Below, piece after piece: positions 28,481 to 64,000 of a DNA stretch of 64,000 nt; position 1 is the stretch's first letter; each line of letters begins with the position of its first letter. The DNA comes from Promethearchaeota archaeon (GTDB taxonomy: Archaea; Asgardarchaeota; Lokiarchaeia; Sigyniarchaeales; SOKP01): contig JAUVNS010000007.1 in NCBI GenBank assembly GCA_030599585.1, forward strand, positions 209,694 through 273,693, written 5' to 3'. The notes under the pieces are model-generated. The model searched no databases. It worked only from the letters and a program-made list of their open reading frames with translations, and was not told where the DNA came from. A program made the translations under genes and the position numbers.

Positions 28481-29956
28481 TTATGTGTTCCACCTTCCTG
28501 GATTAAATATATTATTAGGATCCATACAATGTTTTATCTTTTCAAAAAGACTAATCCATCCGGGATTGATTTTCTTACGCAATTTGGCAGTCAACCATGA
28601 TGGAGTTTTATAAGGTATACACCCTAAGTCTATACAAACATCAGCAATTTCTTCTAATAACTTTACGATTTTGTCTTGATCAGTAAATTTTTTGAACCGA
28701 AATATAGGTCTAAATATACCATAATGACCTCCTTTCATAATCTTAAGATAATTAAATGGGGGTACCCCATGCTTATGATATAACGCATCTGTTTTCTCAA
28801 TTAATTCTTCAAATTTATGAGAGGGCGCATAGGCGCCAAACCATGTCAAGCCACTGTATTCGTGGAGGGAAAGAATCTGTGATGGTAAGTTGTAAATATT
28901 GAGAGCTTTTAGACCAAAAAGCTTAGCAAACTCGCTATAATTAATTAAATGAATATTTGTTCCTCCTTTATTCAATTTTTCAACTATATCGTTAAGAATT
29001 TCTAATTTAGCATTCATTTGGTTTTCAGTTTTAGCGGACATCGGGATTACAGCAGTGTAATAAGGTTCTCCAGGATATCTTACTGGTTCTGGTATCCCAA
29101 CCTCCATTTTAGCAACTTCTACTGAAAATGCAGCAACATCGTTGACAATATCTGCTCTTCCGACTTCTCTCAAAAATGGTCCTAAATCAGTTAACCCAAA
29201 AAAGACAACGAGCTGTGGTTTTTCAATAGGTTCTTTTGGCCACAATTGAACGGCGCATTTGGTTACCAAGCCGGTCATGCCTTGGAAATTTACAAATAAT
29301 CCCATAAGGTCAGGCATCGGGTATCTACTCCACCAAGAATCATCATCTGCTTTATCATTCCCGTAGAAGCATGATCCAATTCGAGTTACAGTTCCATCAA
29401 CGGTTATAACCTCAAGACCATTTATAGAATCTGCCATTGAGCCAATTTTTGCACCCAAGTTTGTCATACCGCTTAATAAAGCGTTTCCAACTACGCCTGA
29501 GTAAGGGGGTGCGTTTGGGAAACTGTATCTTAGACTTGGGAAATTCTCATCTAAGTGTTTTTTAAGTTGACCAAAGGTAACACCGGGTTCTAAGAGTGCG
29601 TACATCATGTTATCATCTACATGTAAAATTCTATTCATCCTTTTTCCAAAATCTACAACAATACCTCCATAATCAGGGATTGTGAGCCCTCCTACATTGT
29701 TTCCCGTGGTATATGGAACTATTGGAATCGAATATTCGTTACAAAACTTAACAAGTTCCACTAACTGCTCTTTATTTTCAGGAATAACCACAAAATCGGG
29801 CATGTGGGGTTTGTTCTCTGTCATGTCTTGAGAATACGGATACAAGTCAACATCTTTTTTAGTAACATAAGTGCCACCAAAAATCTCGATCAATTTAGAA
29901 TAAACACTATCTTTTGAAATCTTTTCAAATACATTTCTCTGTTTTGTTGCTGTCAT
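28481..29956 (-). CDS. FAD-binding oxidoreductase (VAO/PCMH-GlcD superfamily)
   Basis: PDFVVIPEN, GNNVGG, EPGVTF, GLEVI-x-x-DG, GMTGLVTK, DPNNIFNPG. Confidence 0.88.
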   Translation of the reverse strand: MTATKQRNVFEKISKDSVYSKLIEIFGGTYVTKKDVDLYPYSQDMTENKPHMPDFVVIPENKEQLVELVKFCNEYSIPIVPYTTGNNVGGLTIPDYGGIVVDFGKRMNRILHVDDNMMYALLEPGVTFGQLKKHLDENFPSLRYSFPNAPPYSGVVGNALLSGMTNLGAKIGSMADSINGLEVITVDGTVTRIGSCFYGNDKADDDSWWSRYPMPDLMGLFVNFQGMTGLVTKCAVQLWPKEPIEKPQLVVFFGLTDLGPFLREVGRADIVNDVAAFSVEVAKMEVGIPEPVRYPGEPYYTAVIPMSAKTENQMNAKLEILNDIVEKLNKGGTNIHLINYSEFAKLFGLKALNIYNLPSQILSLHEYSGLTWFGAYAPSHKFEELIEKTDALYHKHGVPPFNYLKIMKGGHYGIFRPIFRFKKFTDQDKIVKLLEEIADVCIDLGCIPYKTPSWLTAKLRKKINPGWISLFEKIKHCMDPNNIFNPGRWNT

Positions 29957-31580: not shown

Positions 31581-33056
31581 TCATGTGTTCCATCTTCCGG
31601 GATTAAATATGTTATTTGGATCAATGCAACTTTTAATTTTATCGAATAATTTTAGCCAGCCTGGATTTATTACTTTACGCATTTTTTCCGTCATCCAAGC
31701 AGGTGTCTTATAAGGAATACAGCCCTCAGCGATGCACAGTTCCGCAATTTCGTTTAGTAAGTTATGAATTTTTTCCTCATCTTTATATTTATTATATCTA
31801 AGGATAGGGCGAAAAATTCCGTAATGAGCATGCTTCATAATTTTCATGTAAATAAATGGGGGAACCTTGTATTTTATAAACAGATCATTCACTTTAGGTA
31901 TTAAAAGTTCGAGTTTATGAGTTGGAGCATAGGATCCAAACCATGTTAACCCAGAATATTCTACTAATGATAAAATTACTGCTGGTAGATCTAAATGACA
32001 TCTTACTCTTAAACTGAATAATTTTGTAAACTCATCAGCATCAACTAAAAGAATTTTTATACCTTTTTTCTTCAAATTTTCTATAGTTAACTTCAAATAT
32101 TCCTCTTTAGCTCTGAGAAGGCTTTCTGTTTTACCCGAAATTGAAAAAAGGCATGCAAAATCGGGTTCTCCGGCTATTTTTACCGGTTCTGGAAGTTCTA
32201 CAGCCATTTTTACAACTTCTATGCTTACTGCTGAAATATCATCTACAATTTCAGTTCTTCCAACTTCTCTTATGACCGGTCCGATATCAGGTAAGCCAAA
32301 AACAATTCCAAGATAGGTTTTTTTAAAAGGGGGGTTTGGCCATAATTGCACGGCGCATTTGGTTACTAAGCCGGTCATTCCTTGCCAATTGATAAATAAA
32401 CCCATTAAATCTGGCATTGGATACCTACTCCACCAAGAATCATCATCTGCGGTATCTTTACCATAAAAGCAAGAACCAATCCGAATAAGTTCACCATCAG
32501 CGGTTATGACTTCCAGTCCATTGATAGAATCCCCCATAGAACCAAGTTTGCACGAGAGATTGTTCATACCACTCAAAATTACATTTCCAACCACTCCTGC
32601 GTAGGGTGGAGCGAAGGGGTAACTATATCTTAGATGTGGATAATTGTCGTCTAGGTGTTTTTTTAATTCTCCGAAAGTAACTCCTGGTTCCAGAAGAGCG
32701 TACATCATATTATCATTGATATGGAGAATTTTGTTCATTTTCTTCCCAAAATCGACGACAATACCACCCTGTTCTGGGATTGTTAAACCACCAACATTAT
32801 TCCCAGATATGTAAGGTACAATTGGTATTGAATTTTGGTCACAAAATTTCACCAGTTCGATTAATTGACCTGAATTTTCAGGAATAACTACGAAATCAGG
32901 CATATGAGGTTCACACTCTGTCATATCGTATGAGTATGGATATAAATCGGCAGGTTTATCTGTTACATTCTTAATTCCAAATATATCCTCTAATTTTTTA
33001 AACACGGTCTCCTTACTTATTTTCTCGTACAAATTTCTTTCCTTTGTTTCAGTCAT
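31581..33056 (-). CDS. FAD-binding oxidoreductase, paralog of 28481
   Basis: Same motifs and length (491 aa); shared DDDSWWSRYPMPDLMGLF and GCIPYKTP. Confidence 0.88.
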   Translation of the reverse strand: MTETKERNLYEKISKETVFKKLEDIFGIKNVTDKPADLYPYSYDMTECEPHMPDFVVIPENSGQLIELVKFCDQNSIPIVPYISGNNVGGLTIPEQGGIVVDFGKKMNKILHINDNMMYALLEPGVTFGELKKHLDDNYPHLRYSYPFAPPYAGVVGNVILSGMNNLSCKLGSMGDSINGLEVITADGELIRIGSCFYGKDTADDDSWWSRYPMPDLMGLFINWQGMTGLVTKCAVQLWPNPPFKKTYLGIVFGLPDIGPVIREVGRTEIVDDISAVSIEVVKMAVELPEPVKIAGEPDFACLFSISGKTESLLRAKEEYLKLTIENLKKKGIKILLVDADEFTKLFSLRVRCHLDLPAVILSLVEYSGLTWFGSYAPTHKLELLIPKVNDLFIKYKVPPFIYMKIMKHAHYGIFRPILRYNKYKDEEKIHNLLNEIAELCIAEGCIPYKTPAWMTEKMRKVINPGWLKLFDKIKSCIDPNNIFNPGRWNT

Positions 33057-44350: not shown

Positions 44351-45058
44351 ATGACTGAAGCTTTATACATGAACGACTCCTATTTAAAGAAATGGGATGC
44401 AAAAGTTATTTCTGTGAAAGACGATAAATTCATTGTCCTTAATAAAACCGCATTCTATCCTAAAGGAGGTGGCCAACCATGGGACGAGGGGTATATTATC
44501 AAAAATGGTGAGAAATTCAAGGTAGTATATGTAGGCAAATTTTCTGGAGAAATCAGCCACGAAGTAGAGAATCCTGGACTAAAAGAAGGAGACATAGTTT
44601 CGTGCGAAATCGATTGGGAGAGGCGATATACATATATGCGATACCATACTGCTTGTCATCTTCTTTCAAATCTGCTATATCGTAGAACGAACGCTAAAAT
44701 CACGGGCAACCAGATTGAATTGGACAAAGCAAGAATGGATTTCTCTATGGAGGATTATTCACCAGAAAAGTTACAGACCTATGTTGAAGAAGCTAATGAA
44801 ATTATTAATCAAGACCTTCCAATCACTATTGAGACGATGGCTAAAGCCGCAGTTTTAGGCGAACCCGAGCTTGCAAGATTAGCAGTTGGCTTACCCAAAA
44901 ATTTACAAGAATTCCGTATAGTTAAAATTGGAGACATCGATAAACAAGTTGACGGTGGAACCCATGTTAAAAATCTCAAAGAAATTGGCGAAATTCAGAT
45001 GACCAAAACTGTAAATAAGGGAAAGAAAAATAGGAGATTGTATTTCATACTCAAGTAA
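44351..45058 (+). CDS. alaXM: Alanyl-tRNA editing protein AlaX-M
   Basis: TAFYPKGGGQPWDEG, MRYHTACHLL (HxxxH), DGGTHV. Confidence 0.9.
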   Translation: MTEALYMNDSYLKKWDAKVISVKDDKFIVLNKTAFYPKGGGQPWDEGYIIKNGEKFKVVYVGKFSGEISHEVENPGLKEGDIVSCEIDWERRYTYMRYHTACHLLSNLLYRRTNAKITGNQIELDKARMDFSMEDYSPEKLQTYVEEANEIINQDLPITIETMAKAAVLGEPELARLAVGLPKNLQEFRIVKIGDIDKQVDGGTHVKNLKEIGEIQMTKTVNKGKKNRRLYFILK

Positions 45059-45110
45059 TTAACAAGCAAAACAGCTAATCTTTATTATTCTTTTTAAAAC
45101 TCAATTTTTT

Positions 45111-45126
45111 ACAAAAATGTTAAATA
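45111..45126 (+). promoter_or_regulatory. Putative BRE/TATA promoter, copy 1
   Basis: ACAAAAATGTTAAATA, identical to 52257-52272 and 38 nt (start to start) upstream of the conserved TGATCRT leader start in both copies. Confidence 0.6.
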
Positions 45127-45148
45127 CAAACTTATTTTACTTAGTCTT

Positions 45149-45249
45149 TGATCGTCTTCGATCAGTAATCCGATATTAAATAATGTTTTATGAATATTTA
45201 TTTGAAATTTATAAAGCTATTTGTTTGTAAATCTCTTGATCGATGATCA
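45149..45249 (+). promoter_or_regulatory. Putative structured 5' leader, copy 1
   Basis: TGATCGTCTTCGATCAG (45149-45165) can pair with TTGATCGATGATCA (45236-45249); same closing stem in copy 2. Confidence 0.45.
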
Positions 45250-45279
45250 TTTTTAAATCAAAAAAAAGGTAAAAAGAAA

Positions 45280-45807
45280 ATGAATAAAACAAAAAAAATG
45301 AGTATTTTATTTGCAACAATAGGTATCTTGGCGTTCAGTTTAATTCCCGCAGTTAGCGCAGGCGTTCCTGGTCACATGAAGGAGCGCCCGACGTACAATA
45401 ATCTTGCAGCGCCTTGGTTTCCCTGGATTCCAGATGATTTGCCGTTTAGCGCTTCAGAAGACCTCTATTTTAGAATGGGCTGGTACACAAGTCCTGAAGA
45501 AATAGAAGAGGATATTGCTCCTAAACATCCATGGAAAATTAAACTCTTTATTAACGATGAGGAAATCAATTTACAAAGATTTGGTTTTATAGGTGACAAA
45601 GTAAAAGTCTCATTCTGGTATCACGTCTTTGGACCGGGATATTTTGAAGCGGGCGGAGAATACCTTTTAAGATGGGAATTCTGGGTACGACGACCTTACA
45701 TGGGAGATGGCTTAAATCATTGGAGAATTATGGTAGATCATTGGGGATTATATCTTCCTATGGGTGCTGAATGGTGTTTTGAATATTATTTAAATATTGT
45801 TGCATAA
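45280..45807 (+). CDS. Secreted hypothetical protein (signal peptide)
   Basis: MNKTKK + hydrophobic stretch + PAVSA cleavage-like site; aromatic-rich beta mature domain. Confidence 0.75.
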   Translation: MNKTKKMSILFATIGILAFSLIPAVSAGVPGHMKERPTYNNLAAPWFPWIPDDLPFSASEDLYFRMGWYTSPEEIEEDIAPKHPWKIKLFINDEEINLQRFGFIGDKVKVSFWYHVFGPGYFEAGGEYLLRWEFWVRRPYMGDGLNHWRIMVDHWGLYLPMGAEWCFEYYLNIVA

Positions 45808-45852
45808 ATATTTGATACATTAAATTAAACAACAAAATTAATTAAATATAAA

Positions 45853-45934
45853 ATATAGAAAGCGGAGGAAAAAGTTTAGATAAAATGGCTTCTCGAAAGA
45901 CCACACCTAAACCAATTACCCTCCTACTCTATAT
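45853..45934. repeat. Conserved long imperfect hairpin (candidate structured RNA/ssDNA element), copy 1
   Basis: ATATAGA...GGAGG...GTTTAG...TGG(CTTCTCGAAAGA)CCA...CTAAAC...CCTCC...TCTATAT followed by oligo-T; 45885-45924 identical (40/40) to 53170-53209. Confidence 0.75.
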
Positions 45935-46162
45935 ATCTTTTTTTTCTTTTTATAATTTTGTATAAAATTCTATTATTCTCTTAGTAAAAACCTAAAGATA
46001 GCAATTAATCTTAAAACTCAAATCAAAATTATACTGAGAATCGTGGAATTCATGAATTAAATAGTAAATATAGCATTACTTTTTTGTACGTTAAAATATA
46101 ATTAAGACTAAAGATTACATTAATAATTTAATTATAAAGACAATAACGAGCTCTATACAATT

Positions 46163-46561
46163 ATGAAAGATATCTGTAAGGATTGTGGAAAATGCTGTAT
46201 TGAAACAGAGATGCTCTTATCTAGTTATGATATCGATCGTATTAAAAATGATAACCCCAAACATTTAAAAATAGCCAATTTTGCGCGAAAAACCGAAGAA
46301 GGATTTAACCAATTGATAAATGTTAAAGGTTATTGTGTATTCTTTGACAGTGATGTTAAATTGTGTACAATTTATGATGTAAGACCACAAGGGTGTCGTT
46401 TTTATCCATTGATTTATGATTCGGACAAAAAACATTGTATATTTGATGAGGAATGTCCGAAACCCAAATTATTATATCCAGATAAAGAGATCGCTGCAAA
46501 TACATGTAAGGAAATTAAAATCTTTTTAGAAAACCAAATCTTATTTGCTAAATTAGAATGA
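46163..46561 (+). CDS. YkgJ-family (CxxCxxCC) cysteine-cluster protein
   Basis: CKDCGKCC, CVFF...CTIYDVRPQGCRFYP. Confidence 0.85.
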   Translation: MKDICKDCGKCCIETEMLLSSYDIDRIKNDNPKHLKIANFARKTEEGFNQLINVKGYCVFFDSDVKLCTIYDVRPQGCRFYPLIYDSDKKHCIFDEECPKPKLLYPDKEIAANTCKEIKIFLENQILFAKLE

Positions 46562-49204: not shown

Positions 49205-50125
49205 TTAATTTGGTTTTTCTTTATTGTTTATTTCATCTTTATTTGAACTTTTGAGTTTAGCGTTTACTTGTCTAACTCTTAATTCCTCAGCTCGTTTTAA
49301 ATCTTCTTCACTAACTTTTAGGTATTCCATTAATTTCTTCTTGAAGATTCGTCTAAAAGGCATCCCATAGTAGAAATTATCTCCTTTGGTTGTATTAAAT
49401 TTTGTTGCTGCGGCCATGGGTAATAGGTAAGTGTTATCCTTTAACACGCACCCAGGAGCAACAACATTAAAACCTCCGAGTGTGACATTATCTTCTGCTG
49501 TTACTTTAAAACAGATGATGTTACCAAAAATACCCTCAACAGTATGAGAAGCTAAAGCCGAATTAATACCAATATAACAATTTTTCCCAACATCAATGTG
49601 TCGATCGTTGCTTACAGATTCTTCGAAAGTTGTGCCTCTGTTAATAACGCAAGCACCTACAAAATTAAAAAACCAGTTTGCCAGCCACGGGAAAATTCCT
49701 TTCACGAAAGCATTCTTTCCATATTTAATCATAAAACTTCTGTAGTGGTAATAATCTGCTGCTTTAGAATCTATATTGCGAGGAATTATTCCATCTTTAG
49801 AAGGGCTTCTTTTCTCTGTAAATCTCCATGCAATTCTTGTAAACACTCCTAAGAGAAATAGGTGTGACAAATGGAAGACAATGAGTATAAATGGAATTGT
49901 TAAAAAAATAATTAAAGAATCAAGTCTTGTAAGGACAATAATAAAACTATCTACTTCTAAAAATAAGGGTTTTATAATTAGGAAAAGGTAAAACATTAGA
50001 GCTATGACTGGCACTAAATAAGAACCAACATAAATAAAAAAGAAGAAGGCAATGTATTTCTGATATTGGAATTGAACAATTTCCCGTTGAAGTTCAGGTC
50101 TAGAATCACTAGTATCTTCAATCAA
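49205..50125 (-). CDS. 2-TM left-handed beta-helix acyltransferase-like protein (array member 3)
   Basis: SPSKDGIIPR, VGKNCYIG, SHTVEG, YYGMPFRR. Confidence 0.8.
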   Translation of the reverse strand: MIEDTSDSRPELQREIVQFQYQKYIAFFFFIYVGSYLVPVIALMFYLFLIIKPLFLEVDSFIIVLTRLDSLIIFLTIPFILIVFHLSHLFLLGVFTRIAWRFTEKRSPSKDGIIPRNIDSKAADYYHYRSFMIKYGKNAFVKGIFPWLANWFFNFVGACVINRGTTFEESVSNDRHIDVGKNCYIGINSALASHTVEGIFGNIICFKVTAEDNVTLGGFNVVAPGCVLKDNTYLLPMAAATKFNTTKGDNFYYGMPFRRIFKKKLMEYLKVSEEDLKRAEELRVRQVNAKLKSSNKDEINNKEKPN

Positions 50126-50162
50126 AATCTACTACATTCCTCACTTTTTTATAATTTCTTTT

Positions 50163-51059
50163 TTATTTTTCTTTATTTTCTTCTTCTAATTTTTTTTTTT
50201 CTTGTCTAACTCTTAATTCTTCAGCTCGAGATAAATCCTCTTCGCTTATTTTTAAGTAATTCATTATTTTCTTCTTAAATATTCGACGTAATGGCATCCC
50301 GAAGTAGTAATTATCTCCCTTAGTTGTATTAAATTTTGTGGCTGCAGCCATAGGTAATAAGTAAGAATTTTCTTTTAAATCGCCCCCAGGTCCAATTTGA
50401 TTGAATCCGCCAAGGGTGACATTTTCCCCTAATACAATTTTAAAGTAAATAATATTTCCGAAGATCCCTTCTACTACATGAGTACATAGCGTGGAATTTA
50501 CGCCAATATAGCAATTTTTACCAACGATTATGTTTCTATCGTTAAGTACCGATTCTTCAAATGTGGTGCCTTTATCAATAACGCCAGCACCCACAAAATT
50601 GAGAAACCAATTAACCAACCAAGGGAAAAATCCTTTCATGAAAGCGTTCTTTCCGTATTTAATCATGAAGCTTCTGTAGTGGTAAAAATCTGCTGTTTTT
50701 GAAGGTATGTCACGAGGAATTATACCATCCTTCGAAGGGCTCTTTTTTTCAGTATACCTCCAAAAAATTCGTGTAAACACTCCTAAGAAAAATAGGTGAG
50801 ATAAATAGAATATAATAACCACAAGTGGAATGGTTAAAAAAACAATTAAAGAATCAAGACTCGTAAGAATAACAATAAAACTTCCTACTTCTAAGAACAA
50901 GGGTTTTAAGATTAGGAAGAGGTAAAACATGAGAACTATGACTGGCACTAAATAAGAACCAACATAGATAGCAAAGAAGAATGCCATGTATTTATGATAC
51001 TGGAAGTGAACTAATTCCCGTGGAATATCCGATCCAGAATCACTTATATCTTCAAGCAA
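50163..51059 (-). CDS. 2-TM left-handed beta-helix acyltransferase-like protein (array member 2)
   Basis: SPSKDGIIPR, VGKNCYIG, THVVEG, YFGMPLRR. Confidence 0.8.
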   Translation of the reverse strand: MLEDISDSGSDIPRELVHFQYHKYMAFFFAIYVGSYLVPVIVLMFYLFLILKPLFLEVGSFIVILTSLDSLIVFLTIPLVVIIFYLSHLFFLGVFTRIFWRYTEKKSPSKDGIIPRDIPSKTADFYHYRSFMIKYGKNAFMKGFFPWLVNWFLNFVGAGVIDKGTTFEESVLNDRNIIVGKNCYIGVNSTLCTHVVEGIFGNIIYFKIVLGENVTLGGFNQIGPGGDLKENSYLLPMAAATKFNTTKGDNYYFGMPLRRIFKKKIMNYLKISEEDLSRAEELRVRQEKKKLEEENKEK

Positions 51060-51085
51060 AATCTAATACATTCCTCTCTATTTTA

Positions 51086-52006
51086 TTATGAATTCTCATC
51101 ATTTGTTACTTTTTTCTGTCTTTTTAATTTTTCATTCTCTTGTTTAACTCTTAATTTCTCAGCTCGTTCTAAATCTTCTTCGCTTACTTTTAAGTAATCC
51201 ATTATTTTCTTCTTAAATATTCGTCGGAATGGCATCCCAAAGTAATAATTATCCCCTTTAGTTTTATTATGCTTTGTCGCAGCCGCTATTGGTAAGAGAT
51301 ACGAGTTATCGCTTAACTCACATCCAGGCGCAATATTGTTAAATCCACCTAGTGTAACATTTTCGCCTAATTTGATTTCAAAAAAGACGATATTGCCAAA
51401 TATTCCTTCTACAAAGTGAGAAGATAATGCAGAATTAACACCGATATAGCAATTCCTTCCAACATTTATGTTTTTATCGGTAACAACTGATTCTTCTAAT
51501 GTGGAGCCTTTATTAATAACCCCAGTTCCTACAAAATTAAAGAACCAATTTGCTAACCAAGGAAAAACTCCTTTCATAAATGAGTTTTTTCCGTATTTTA
51601 GCATAAAAGATCTTATATGGTAATAATTAGCGGTTTTGGAACCGATATTTCGTGGAATTACGCCATCTTTCGTAGGACTTCTATATTCAGTGAACCTCCA
51701 GAAAATTCGAGATATTAAACCTACAATAAATAAGCGAGATAAGTAACTAACAACAATTACTAACGGCAAAGCTAAAAATGCCATTAACGAATCAATATTT
51801 GTAAATATAACAAGGAGGTTATCTACTAACAAGACATATGGAACAAATACAATAATTATGTAAGTCATAAAAATGATACCCGAGACTACATAAGACAAAT
51901 AATAAATTACAAAGAATATACTTAAGTACCAATGAAACTGGAGTTTAATTTTTTCTCTTGGAACTTCCGTATCGTCTTCATCATTACCTTCAATTTCATC
52001 TAGCAC
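51086..52006 (-). CDS. 2-TM left-handed beta-helix acyltransferase-like protein (array member 1)
   Basis: SPTKDGVIPR, VGRNCYIG, SHFVEG, YFGMPFRR; GGTGA RBS. Confidence 0.8.
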   Translation of the reverse strand: MLDEIEGNDEDDTEVPREKIKLQFHWYLSIFFVIYYLSYVVSGIIFMTYIIIVFVPYVLLVDNLLVIFTNIDSLMAFLALPLVIVVSYLSRLFIVGLISRIFWRFTEYRSPTKDGVIPRNIGSKTANYYHIRSFMLKYGKNSFMKGVFPWLANWFFNFVGTGVINKGSTLEESVVTDKNINVGRNCYIGVNSALSSHFVEGIFGNIVFFEIKLGENVTLGGFNNIAPGCELSDNSYLLPIAAATKHNKTKGDNYYFGMPFRRIFKKKIMDYLKVSEEDLERAEKLRVKQENEKLKRQKKVTNDENS

Positions 52007-52256
52007 TTCTATTCACCTTTCTTTTTTTTAATTTTTTTCTTGATTTCAATTAGGCTTCATAGTTAAGCTTACCAGATCAAATTTGAATTAGTTAATATAT
52101 ATTATAAGTAATACTCTACTTAATTTCTGTGGTTTTCTTTTAAAAATGCTAATTTGAAAATCATAAATCTGATCTATTTTCCTTTAAGAATAGAGAAGGG
52201 TGTATCTTGTGCTAAAATAATAGAGAAGAACAGCTTTTCCCCAAATTTAATATCTG

Positions 52257-52272
52257 ACAAAAATGTTAAATA
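52257..52272 (+). promoter_or_regulatory. Putative BRE/TATA promoter, copy 2
   Basis: ACAAAAATGTTAAATA, identical to 45111-45126. Confidence 0.6.
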
Positions 52273-52294
52273 GGATGTTATCTCATTTGTAATT

Positions 52295-52393
52295 TGATCA
52301 TTTCCGATCAAAGATATAGGATGGGCGTTCCTAATTGAAAAACGACTTCACCTATCTTAACTAAAACCTATCTTTGGTGTTAAAAAATGATCA
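52295..52393 (+). promoter_or_regulatory. Putative structured 5' leader, copy 2
   Basis: TGATCAT...ATGATCA closing stem; AAGATATAGG can pair (with a bulge) to either of two downstream CCTATCTT copies. Confidence 0.45.
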
Positions 52394-52444
52394 TTTTCGA
52401 AAACGGAAAAATTGAATTTGAAAAAAAATAGAGGAATAGAAAAA

Positions 52445-53080
52445 ATGAAAAAAACAAAAATAATTCTCGTAGCGGCTTTGGGAATTTGCATGTTAAGCTT
52501 TATGCCAACAGTACTAGGAAAAGCAGACGTTAGACCAATTTCGGACTTCACTGATACTAACGGTTATGTAGCAGCATGGATGGATCCTGAAACCAACTTA
52601 ATCATTTTCCCTCATGGATTTTTTGTAACTCCTCCAGGCTTCAACACTATTTCGGACTGCGAATACCATGGCTCTGTACTCGAGAGAGAATTGAAAGATG
52701 GACGAATTATGTATAAAATTAATTTGCACGTAAAAGGTGCCTATATGTTGGTCGGTGATTTTGGTATTAATCCATATGTATTTGAAGGCGAAATGGATTA
52801 TAATTTCCAAGTAACCATAATTGTTGAGGGAGAATTGGGTGGTCCTGTCCCAAATCTTATGGATATATGGTTTTTTGGTGCAGCAGGTGAAACACCATAT
52901 CTGCATATAACGGGGAGTGGTACCGGGACATTTCTAGTTGATGCATTTGGTTTCACTGCTGGGGATACTGCGAAAGTAAAAGTGAATCAAGTTGGTATTG
53001 TAATACCAGATGACCACCCCCAATATGATCCATTTTATGCACCATTTATGTATCCTGTAGAATTCGTCTTTTTCCACTAA
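52445..53080 (+). CDS. Secreted hypothetical protein (signal peptide)
   Basis: MKKTK + hydrophobic stretch + PTVLG-KA; ATG at 52445 after GAGG preferred to TTG at 52412. Confidence 0.75.
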   Translation: MKKTKIILVAALGICMLSFMPTVLGKADVRPISDFTDTNGYVAAWMDPETNLIIFPHGFFVTPPGFNTISDCEYHGSVLERELKDGRIMYKINLHVKGAYMLVGDFGINPYVFEGEMDYNFQVTIIVEGELGGPVPNLMDIWFFGAAGETPYLHITGSGTGTFLVDAFGFTAGDTAKVKVNQVGIVIPDDHPQYDPFYAPFMYPVEFVFFH

Positions 53081-53137: not shown

Positions 53138-53220
53138 ATATAGAAAAGGAGAGGAACTTGTTTAGATACATGGCTTCTCGAAAGACCACACCTAAACCAA
53201 TTACCCTCCATTCTCTATAT
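53138..53220. repeat. Conserved long imperfect hairpin, copy 2
   Basis: Same architecture as 45853-45934, identical 40-nt core 53170-53209, followed by T9. Confidence 0.75.
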
Positions 53221-53346
53221 CTTTTTTTTTATTTTTAAAATTAATCTAAAAAAACTCACTATTTTACTATTTAATTAGTTTCAAAGACATTAAGAGGGTT
53301 GGAGAACGCTAAAAAAATTCGGAGTATTCATTTTTCAATGGACTAA

Positions 53347-63300: not shown

Positions 63301-64000
63301 ATGAAAAAATCAAAAAAAACGCACATCTTGTTAAAGGTTCTCCTTATTTCAATGTTTTTCGTAATTCCATATATGGTAATAAGTATACAGAGAGAGAGCG
63401 AAATTCTGATTGAGGAGAAGAATCCTAACGAGATTTTAAATACTCGGCCACCCCAAGCATCTTCTCCTTACTACGGAAACACGGCCGGAGATGCGCGTGA
63501 CGTTTACGTGAGTGGAGATAACGCCTACGTGGCGGATGGTTGGACGGGTTTGGCGGTCATCGACGTTTCCGACCCGACAAACCCGGGAACGCCCATCTAC
63601 GAAGACACGACCGGATTAGCAGATAGCGTTTACGTGAGCGGAGATTACGCCTATGTGGCGGATTATGGTTCGGGCTTGGCGGTCATCGATGTTTCCGACC
63701 CGACAAACCCGGGAACGCCCGTCTACGAAGATACGACTGGAGAAGCACGTGGCGTTTACGTGAGCGGAGATTACGCCTATGTGGCGGATGCTGGTTCGGG
63801 CTTGGCGGTCATCGACGTTTCCGACCCGACAAACCCGGGAACGCCCGTCTACGAAGACACGACCGGAGAAGCAGTTGACGTTTACGTGAGCGGAGATTAC
63901 GCCTATGTGGCGGATAATGCACAGGGCTTGGCGGTCATCGAAGTTTCCGACCCGACAAACCCGGGAACGACCCTCTACGAAGACGCGACCGGAGGTGAAC
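63301..64000 (+). CDS. Secreted/surface LVIVD-repeat (beta-propeller) protein, 3'-truncated by window edge
   Basis: MKKSKK + signal/TM, then repeats of VYVSGDYAYVADxxxGLAVIDVSDPTNPGTPVYEDTTGxAxx; absent from the ORF track because it has no stop in the window. Confidence 0.88.
   Translation, partial: MKKSKKTHILLKVLLISMFFVIPYMVISIQRESEILIEEKNPNEILNTRPPQASSPYYGNTAGDARDVYVSGDNAYVADGWTGLAVIDVSDPTNPGTPIYEDTTGLADSVYVSGDYAYVADYGSGLAVIDVSDPTNPGTPVYEDTTGEARGVYVSGDYAYVADAGSGLAVIDVSDPTNPGTPVYEDTTGEAVDVYVSGDYAYVADNAQGLAVIEVSDPTNPGTTLYEDATGGE
63481..64000 (+). repeat. 126-bp tandem coding repeats (at least 4 units)
   Basis: CGTTTACGTGAG recurs at 63501, 63627, 63753 and 63879; one sampled line is 60% GC. 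Confidence 0.92.

Follow-up and report, generated by a model that had tools for sequence, protein, structure and literature searches.

A conserved stem-loop and T-tract behind secreted-protein genes in one genus of Promethearchaeota

Background

Two genes for small signal-peptide proteins, about 7 kb apart in the stretch of archaeal DNA analysed here (64,000 nucleotides, referred to as the window), are each followed by a long imperfect palindrome and a run of T. What does this palindrome do? The original prediction, made from the sequence alone, held that it is more than a terminator and that it folds better when read from the minus strand, and proposed an antisense small RNA, a protein-binding RNA element or a single-stranded DNA recombination site comparable to integron attC. 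Termination at oligo-U tracts is established for archaea and requires no hairpin, so a role of the hairpin in termination is something that we can only infer. We therefore looked at the structure, the strand preference, the neighbouring genes and the distribution of the element, and weighed the possible explanations against each other.

Results

The two window copies share one architecture

All four nested stems described by the original prediction are present at the expected places in both window copies (Table 1). The element covers 82 nt of AT-rich sequence and consists of four nested helices, P1 to P4, separated by internal loops and closed by a 12-nt loop. The outer arms read ATATAGA and TCTATAT, and a tract of eight or nine T starts 3 nt past P1. 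A 40-nt block spanning the loop and the 3' arms (45885-45924 and 53170-53209) is 100% identical between the two copies, and the 5' arms differ in sequence. The proposed pattern of an invariant 3' arm and a variable 5' arm describes the window copies, but in the 31 copies found by similarity the two arms change about equally, with 15 transitions in each arm of P2-P4. The apical loop had also been read as a C(GAAA)G tetraloop, or UUCG on the minus strand; the window copies carry the AAG triplet needed for it, but most homologues have ATG, TAA or TTA. K-turn, GNRA and UUCG motifs were rejected, as the flanking bases that they require vary among the homologues.

Table 1. Features of the two hairpin loci in the window
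Feature	Position	Strand	Evidence or remark
Hairpin copy 1	45853-45934	+	R1 covariance-model match, 98 bits; folds on both strands
Stems of copy 1	P1 45853-59/45928-34; P2 45864-68/45920-24; P3 45874-79/45907-12; P4 45886-88/45901-03		Apical loop 45889-45900
Hairpin copy 2	53138-53220	+	R1 match, 93.9 bits; sequence and folds
Stems of copy 2	P1 53138-44/53214-20; P2 53148-54/53205-09; P3 53160-65/53192-97; P4 53171-73/53186-88		
T8 + C + T5 after copy 1	45938-45951	+	Likely oligo-U termination signal of the sense transcript
T9 + A + T5 after copy 2	53222-53236	+	Minus strand reads TTTTAAAAATA, then an A-run
BRE/TATA-like box AAAATTATAAAAAG	45946-45959	-	About 24 nt upstream of the minus-strand P2 GGAGG; candidate antisense promoter
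Copy-1 gene, 175-aa signal-peptide protein, cluster c10	45280-45807	+	ORF list; no Pfam family
Copy-2 gene, 211-222-aa signal-peptide protein, cluster c0	52412-53080 (ATG at 52445)	+	ORF list; profile A4 match
Promoter and leader block of the copy-1 gene	45097-45164	+	68 nt, 72% identical to 52243-52310 upstream of the copy-2 gene

The element is restricted to one genus and built on a common scaffold

A covariance model built here (R1) found the element in 24 of the 42 species genomes of one Promethearchaeota (Loki) genus, with 1-8 copies each, and a DNA search of 16 genomes from three other families of the same order gave zero copies. The genome from which the window comes (4.85 Mb, 52 contigs) has three full copies, one short form and one degenerate copy. 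No Rfam family matched anywhere in the window at the gathering score; at E up to 10, region 45000-46200 gave three chance-level matches only, with no SECIS among them. Our literature searches found no description of the element. If it is a terminator hairpin only, the gain in annotation would be modest and would consist of a candidate new RNA family for one genus.

P1 (ATAGAA/TTCTAT), P2 (GGAGG/CCTCC) and the T8-10 tract are common to all variants. The tract is kept at the same position in nearly all homologues and always lies on the far side of the hairpin. In one variant P2 reads GGGAT/ATCCC, a true compensatory change. The centre comes in several types: the P3/P4 insert with a near-invariant TGGCTTCTCGA-NNN-ACCACACCTAAAC, other hairpins, or a 13-15-nt loop alone (the 62-nt forms). 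The inner P3/P4 part with its loop CUUCUCGA is one among several interchangeable inserts. The short form in the window's own genome is 66 nt long and keeps P1, P2 and a T11 tract, but where P3/P4 would be it has an inner segment that is short and of another sequence; it follows the fourth c0-family gene (G000:C20:344948-345703, L005 1501-1566). The degenerate copy (G000:C39:8839-8928, L004 1468-1557) lies behind an unrelated gene and keeps ACCACACCTAAACCA and a weak T-run, with its 5' arms eroded.

The element follows genes for unrelated secreted proteins

The hairpin starts 45 nt after the stop codon of the copy-1 gene and 57 nt after that of the copy-2 gene. BLAST single linkage had suggested one paralogous family behind the hairpin. 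We rejected this, as the mature domains of the two proteins show no profile similarity (hhalign probability 0.1%, c10 versus c0), and we attribute the BLAST linkage to the signal peptides for the same reason. The element therefore frames unrelated proteins, as do the promoter, leader and signal peptide that the two genes share. The promoter block of the copy-1 gene holds a BRE/TATA-like AAAAATGTTAAATA. The 68-nt block upstream of both hairpin-bearing genes has a TGATCG...CGATCA palindrome, and the signal peptides of the two proteins are similar too.

The same arrangement is seen across the genus. Among 62 instances, some of which are loci fetched twice, an ORF on the same strand ends upstream in 53 (within 134 nt). 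In 46 it is a gene of cluster c0, c10 or c13 with its stop codon 17-164 nt away (17-61 nt in 43), and in seven it is another gene, mostly for a signal-peptide protein too. The c0, c10 and c13 proteins are 145-290 aa long; almost all have a signal peptide, and none belongs to a Pfam family. The remaining nine instances, which are seven unique copies since two loci were counted twice, have no plus-strand gene upstream, and five of the seven (L020, L050, L072, L073 and L077) have a minus-strand gene on either side. To the right, the next gene is convergent in roughly half of the instances (28-148 nt away) and co-directional in the remainder. Over the 42 genus genomes the hairpin and the c0 gene family are found together in 21, the hairpin alone in three, the family alone in three and neither in 15. 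All four c0 or c10 genes that the A4 profile identified in the window's own genome have the P1/P2 scaffold and a T-run behind them.

Several other features of these loci were recorded. Many c0 genes have a divergent gene for a winged-helix-like regulator (cluster c1) about 1 kb upstream (L002, L029-L032, L041, L047, L048, L053, L056, L058-L060, L064, L069, L071 and L074), and its product may be a dedicated regulator. Tandem units of gene plus hairpin, two or three on one strand, form small arrays in L048/L087 (G047:C206:16406-20511), L049 and L060. A single in-frame TAG or TAA interrupts several c0-family genes (G018:C47, G054:C77, G046:C40, G053:C38, G009:C110 and G017:C17), which could be pseudogenes or cases of read-through. 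The window itself has three successive repeats of about 935 nt, 73-77% identical, at 49214-51408, which are tandem genes for hexapeptide-repeat proteins on the minus strand; a pair of 300-nt stretches, 74% identical and 3.1 kb apart (29059-29358 and 32159-32458); and, towards its end, a tandem repeat with a 126-nt period in at least three overlapping copies, 87-88% identical (63471-63974).

The minus strand folds better as RNA

The prediction that the minus strand folds better is borne out when both strands of both window copies are folded as RNA. The minus strand is far more stable in each, with -29.6 and -33.5 kcal/mol for copies 1 and 2 (z-scores -4.5 and -6.6) against -18.3 and -19.3 kcal/mol on the plus strand (z-scores -2.5 and -2.6). 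The same holds for 53 of 53 homologous copies, which are however kin to one another and whose means are -26.9 and -18.2 kcal/mol, and the composition-corrected z-score is lower on the minus strand in 44 of the 53, or in 50 of the 53 if the inner part alone is considered. With one fixed structure, 88-90% of the cells pair on the minus strand versus 75% on the plus strand. The energy gap shrinks to 2-2.6 kcal/mol when DNA parameters are used, and the strand asymmetry is therefore an effect of G.U pairing in RNA.

The original prediction pointed to plus-strand A-C mismatches that become G-U pairs on the minus strand. Three consensus A.C juxtapositions beside P3 and P4 account for most of the gap; they are inherited and found throughout the subfamily. 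A small surplus of transitions compatible with minus-strand pairing contributes as well. The folding advantage is confined to copies with the P3/P4 insert, and variants with another insert or none fold about equally well on both strands.

Is the minus-strand pairing maintained? A tree count over the 31 similarity-found copies gave 21 changes from Watson-Crick to minus-strand wobble pairs in P2-P4 against nine to plus-strand wobble pairs (p = 0.043), and seven of each in P1; the copies are related by descent, so such counts overstate their independence. The set of 81 copies gave 34 against 13 in P2-P4, a count biased in P3/P4 because many of its loci were retrieved by exact match to a pattern covering the loop and the 3' arm. 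A contrast between P1 and P2-P4 appeared in the 81 copies (p = 0.003), but it vanished in the less biased set once P1 was re-registered (7 to 7, Fisher 0.31), and we discarded it. The minus-strand wobble bias is real but modest, and it is contrary to what a purely plus-strand RNA structure predicts.

Covariation does not strengthen the case. Additional copies of the P3/P4-insert subfamily, by which the original prediction proposed to test it, show no compensatory double changes, and shuffle controls were not convincingly exceeded. RNAalifold, run on 22 sequences, found 14 true minus-strand pairs, and its only five plus-strand pairs were spurious; on 81 sequences its consensus collapsed on both strands and was uninformative.

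A minus-strand transcript is possible

The strand asymmetry could reflect an antisense hairpin RNA. Such a small RNA of about 65-70 nt would be a minus-strand transcript of the inner part, P2-P4. It would have its own BRE/TATA box immediately past the T-run, start near the P2 GGAGG and end in the U-rich stretch after P2. Its complementarity to the 3' UTR of its own gene would be full and that to the 3' UTRs of the other genes almost full, so that pairing through the complementary apical loops could co-regulate the set, and such an RNA could coexist with a terminator role on the sense strand. A box reading TTTAAATA or TTATAAAA is found on the minus strand just past the A-run and at a fixed spacing. 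It is present in 62.5% of 80 copies but in only 16% of 659 generic T-runs after ORFs of this genome, an enrichment of about four times, and it resembles a tRNA promoter of the same genome, AAACTTTAAATA. Because this box is enriched at a fixed spacing, an antisense hairpin RNA stays plausible. Other observations that agree with it are the wobble bias in P2-P4 with no such bias in P1, the RNA-specific nature of the asymmetry and the persistence of the element between two minus-strand genes. One of these gene-less copies, L073, is broken inside the P1-P2 linker and has lost the far P1 arm alone.

Several points weaken this reading. Most of the energy gap comes from the three A.C sites shared by descent, and on the 31-copy tree these A.C states went to a mismatch (seven events) about as often as to a Watson-Crick pair (five events). 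The P3/P4 subfamily shows no compensatory covariation, and the 34-to-13 count carries the bias of the pattern-fetched loci. The TATA-like stretch can also be read, in AT-rich DNA, as the second U-tract of a sense terminator, and on the minus strand a run of U4 or longer follows P2 in only about half of the copies. The antisense small RNA of the original prediction is thus compatible with the wobble asymmetry, the minus-strand box and the gene-less copies, but covariation gives it no backing, and we consider it possible though rather doubtful. The stronger form, in which the P2-P4 core is transcribed on its own into an RNA of about 65-70 nt that acts in trans through its invariant loop as a regulon tag on the mRNAs of unrelated, fast-changing secreted proteins, seems unlikely to us.

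A portable module or recombination site is improbable

The observed pattern could also stem from a portable module of palindromic DNA, similar to a MITE or REP, or from an anchor at which cassettes are exchanged by homology, with P1 and P2 as terminal inverted repeats round a variable centre; such a module would move or recombine apart from the upstream gene, and any termination would be a by-product. The ends do resemble terminal inverted repeats and the centre is variable, and the element follows mature domains without detectable mutual similarity as well as other unrelated genes. Mosaic loci point the same way. The copy-1 gene has orthologues 62-69% identical in two genomes (L163, G005:C129, and L164, G047:C153), which share the end of the coding region and the 45-nt spacer at 92% but have a different hairpin and T-run. 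Conversely, the G013 locus L022 shares the hairpin at 84% and the next 90 alignment columns at 79%, with a protein only 41% identical. In these three loci, aligned to window positions 45760-46030, the homology breaks at the 5' edge of the hairpin. The break of L073 in the P1-P2 linker and the tandem sets of two or three units may be added.

Against mobility, the element nearly always points the same way relative to the upstream gene and the T-run, no genome has more than eight copies, and homologous recombination alone could yield the mosaics. The window's own genome, 100% complete by marker genes, has no match to the Y1/HUH transposase family PF01797 and hence no Y1/RAYT transposase, and its two tyrosine recombinases (PF00589) are on contigs C31 and C32, with the hairpin copies on C26, C34, C20 and C39. 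We regard a portable module as quite improbable.

The third proposal was a site comparable to integron attC, at which a site-specific integrase would recombine a hairpin of bottom-strand single-stranded DNA. Like attC, the element is an imperfect palindrome located 3' of unrelated ORFs, with two conserved outer helices and a variable centre or terminal structure, and its bottom strand is more stable as DNA too, by the small gap given above. But it has no RYYYAAC...GTTRRRY cores: the outer arms are ATATAGA/TCTATAT, and GTTTAG...CTAAAC is reversed and off consensus. No copy-bearing contig has an integrase. Each gene has its own promoter and leader, unlike a promoterless cassette array, the copies are dispersed, the T-tract is always attached, and the asymmetry is an RNA effect. 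The analogy fails in every defining feature that could be tested here (cores, integrase and promoterless array), and an attC-like function is extremely improbable.

Coding and other RNA readings were rejected

A plus-strand peptide (ATG GCT TCT CGA ...) was rejected since its start varies among ATG, TTG, CTG and ACG and many copies have an in-frame CGA-TAA or CGA-TGA. A leaderless minus-strand ORF (MEEYWFRCG...) loses its ATG in about one third of the copies, has TGG changed to TAG in at least eight and an in-frame TAA in L030, and its third codon positions are invariant. A SECIS element is not indicated: both window ORFs are uninterrupted and end in TAA, with no in-frame UGA, and no SECIS model matched. 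ARAGORN, run on the whole genome, predicted no tRNA at the hairpin sites. A link to Argonaute was rejected as well, since PIWI is found in two of the 42 genus genomes and the hairpin in 24, with no co-occurrence; the window's own genome encodes a PIWI-domain (Argonaute-like) ORF at G000:C24:2671-3516 on the minus strand.

Discussion

The element is best explained as a 3'-end module of the sense mRNAs of a specific gene set, because its orientation is fixed, the T-tract is attached to it, it co-occurs with its genes and all variants share one scaffold. Its role would be in termination together with 3'-end protection or factor binding, and we give this reading about an even chance of being correct. 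RNA polymerase would read through the 82-nt stem-loop and stop in the T8-10 tract that starts 3 nt later. The mRNA would be left with a long terminal stem-loop, which may hinder decay in the 3'-to-5' direction. The invariant outer helices (P1, ATAGAA/TTCTAT; P2, GGAGG/CCTCC), together with the CUUCUCGA loop at the apex, are a probable binding site for a common factor, and such a site would provide one post-transcriptional handle on unrelated secreted proteins. The protein-binding RNA of the original prediction is plausible in this sense. Three observations count against a sense module, namely the minus-strand wobble bias in P2-P4, the seven unique gene-less copies and the L160 family gene, which has a T11 tract only and no hairpin.

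Is it more than a terminator? The element is conserved in sequence and tied to a specific gene set, unlike a generic terminator hairpin, and to this extent the proposal stands. Hairpin terminators as such are not enriched in the window (15 found versus 10.1 +/- 3.3 expected), and the element is not listed by the consensus scan of the window for them (short GC-rich stem, small loop). It resembles a bacterial intrinsic terminator in having a stem-loop followed by a U-tract, tens of nucleotides past the stop codon and on the strand of the gene. But here the host is an archaeon, and the hairpin differs in its length of 82 nt, its AT-rich composition and its four helices with internal loops; its sequence is conserved, and only a small set of genes carries it.

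Enterobacterial REP/BIME elements are repeated imperfect palindromes in 3' UTRs with conserved ends, and they can stabilise the upstream mRNA. The present element is likewise a repeated 3'-UTR palindrome with conserved ends, but it has only 1-8 copies per genome, a fixed orientation and an attached T-tract, and its own genome has no RAYT-type transposase. Cis-antisense pairs that overlap at their 3' ends and carry complementary stem-loops are known from CopA/CopT of plasmid R1 and the type I toxin-antitoxin pair txpA/RatA. If a minus-strand RNA exists, the likeness would extend to mirror-image hairpins, kissing loops and convergent transcription over a shared end. Those pairs serve replication and toxin functions, however, and here the genes encode secreted proteins of 145-290 aa and the antisense RNA is a candidate only.

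Archaeal oligo-U terminators assisted by aCPSF1/FttA are defined by the U-tract alone (eLife 2021, PMC8716108). The likeness lies in the T8-10 tract downstream of the gene, often with a second tract of three to five T, and the difference lies in the conserved structured element that here precedes the U-tract.

Conclusions

The shared promoter, leader, signal peptide and 3'-end structure suggest that part of the secretome of these archaea is expressed within a common frame. Asgard archaea are the closest prokaryotic relatives of eukaryotes, and to our knowledge almost nothing is known about gene control at the RNA level in them. If the stronger antisense reading were true, an Asgard archaeon would use this RNA as a regulon tag that acts in trans after transcription.
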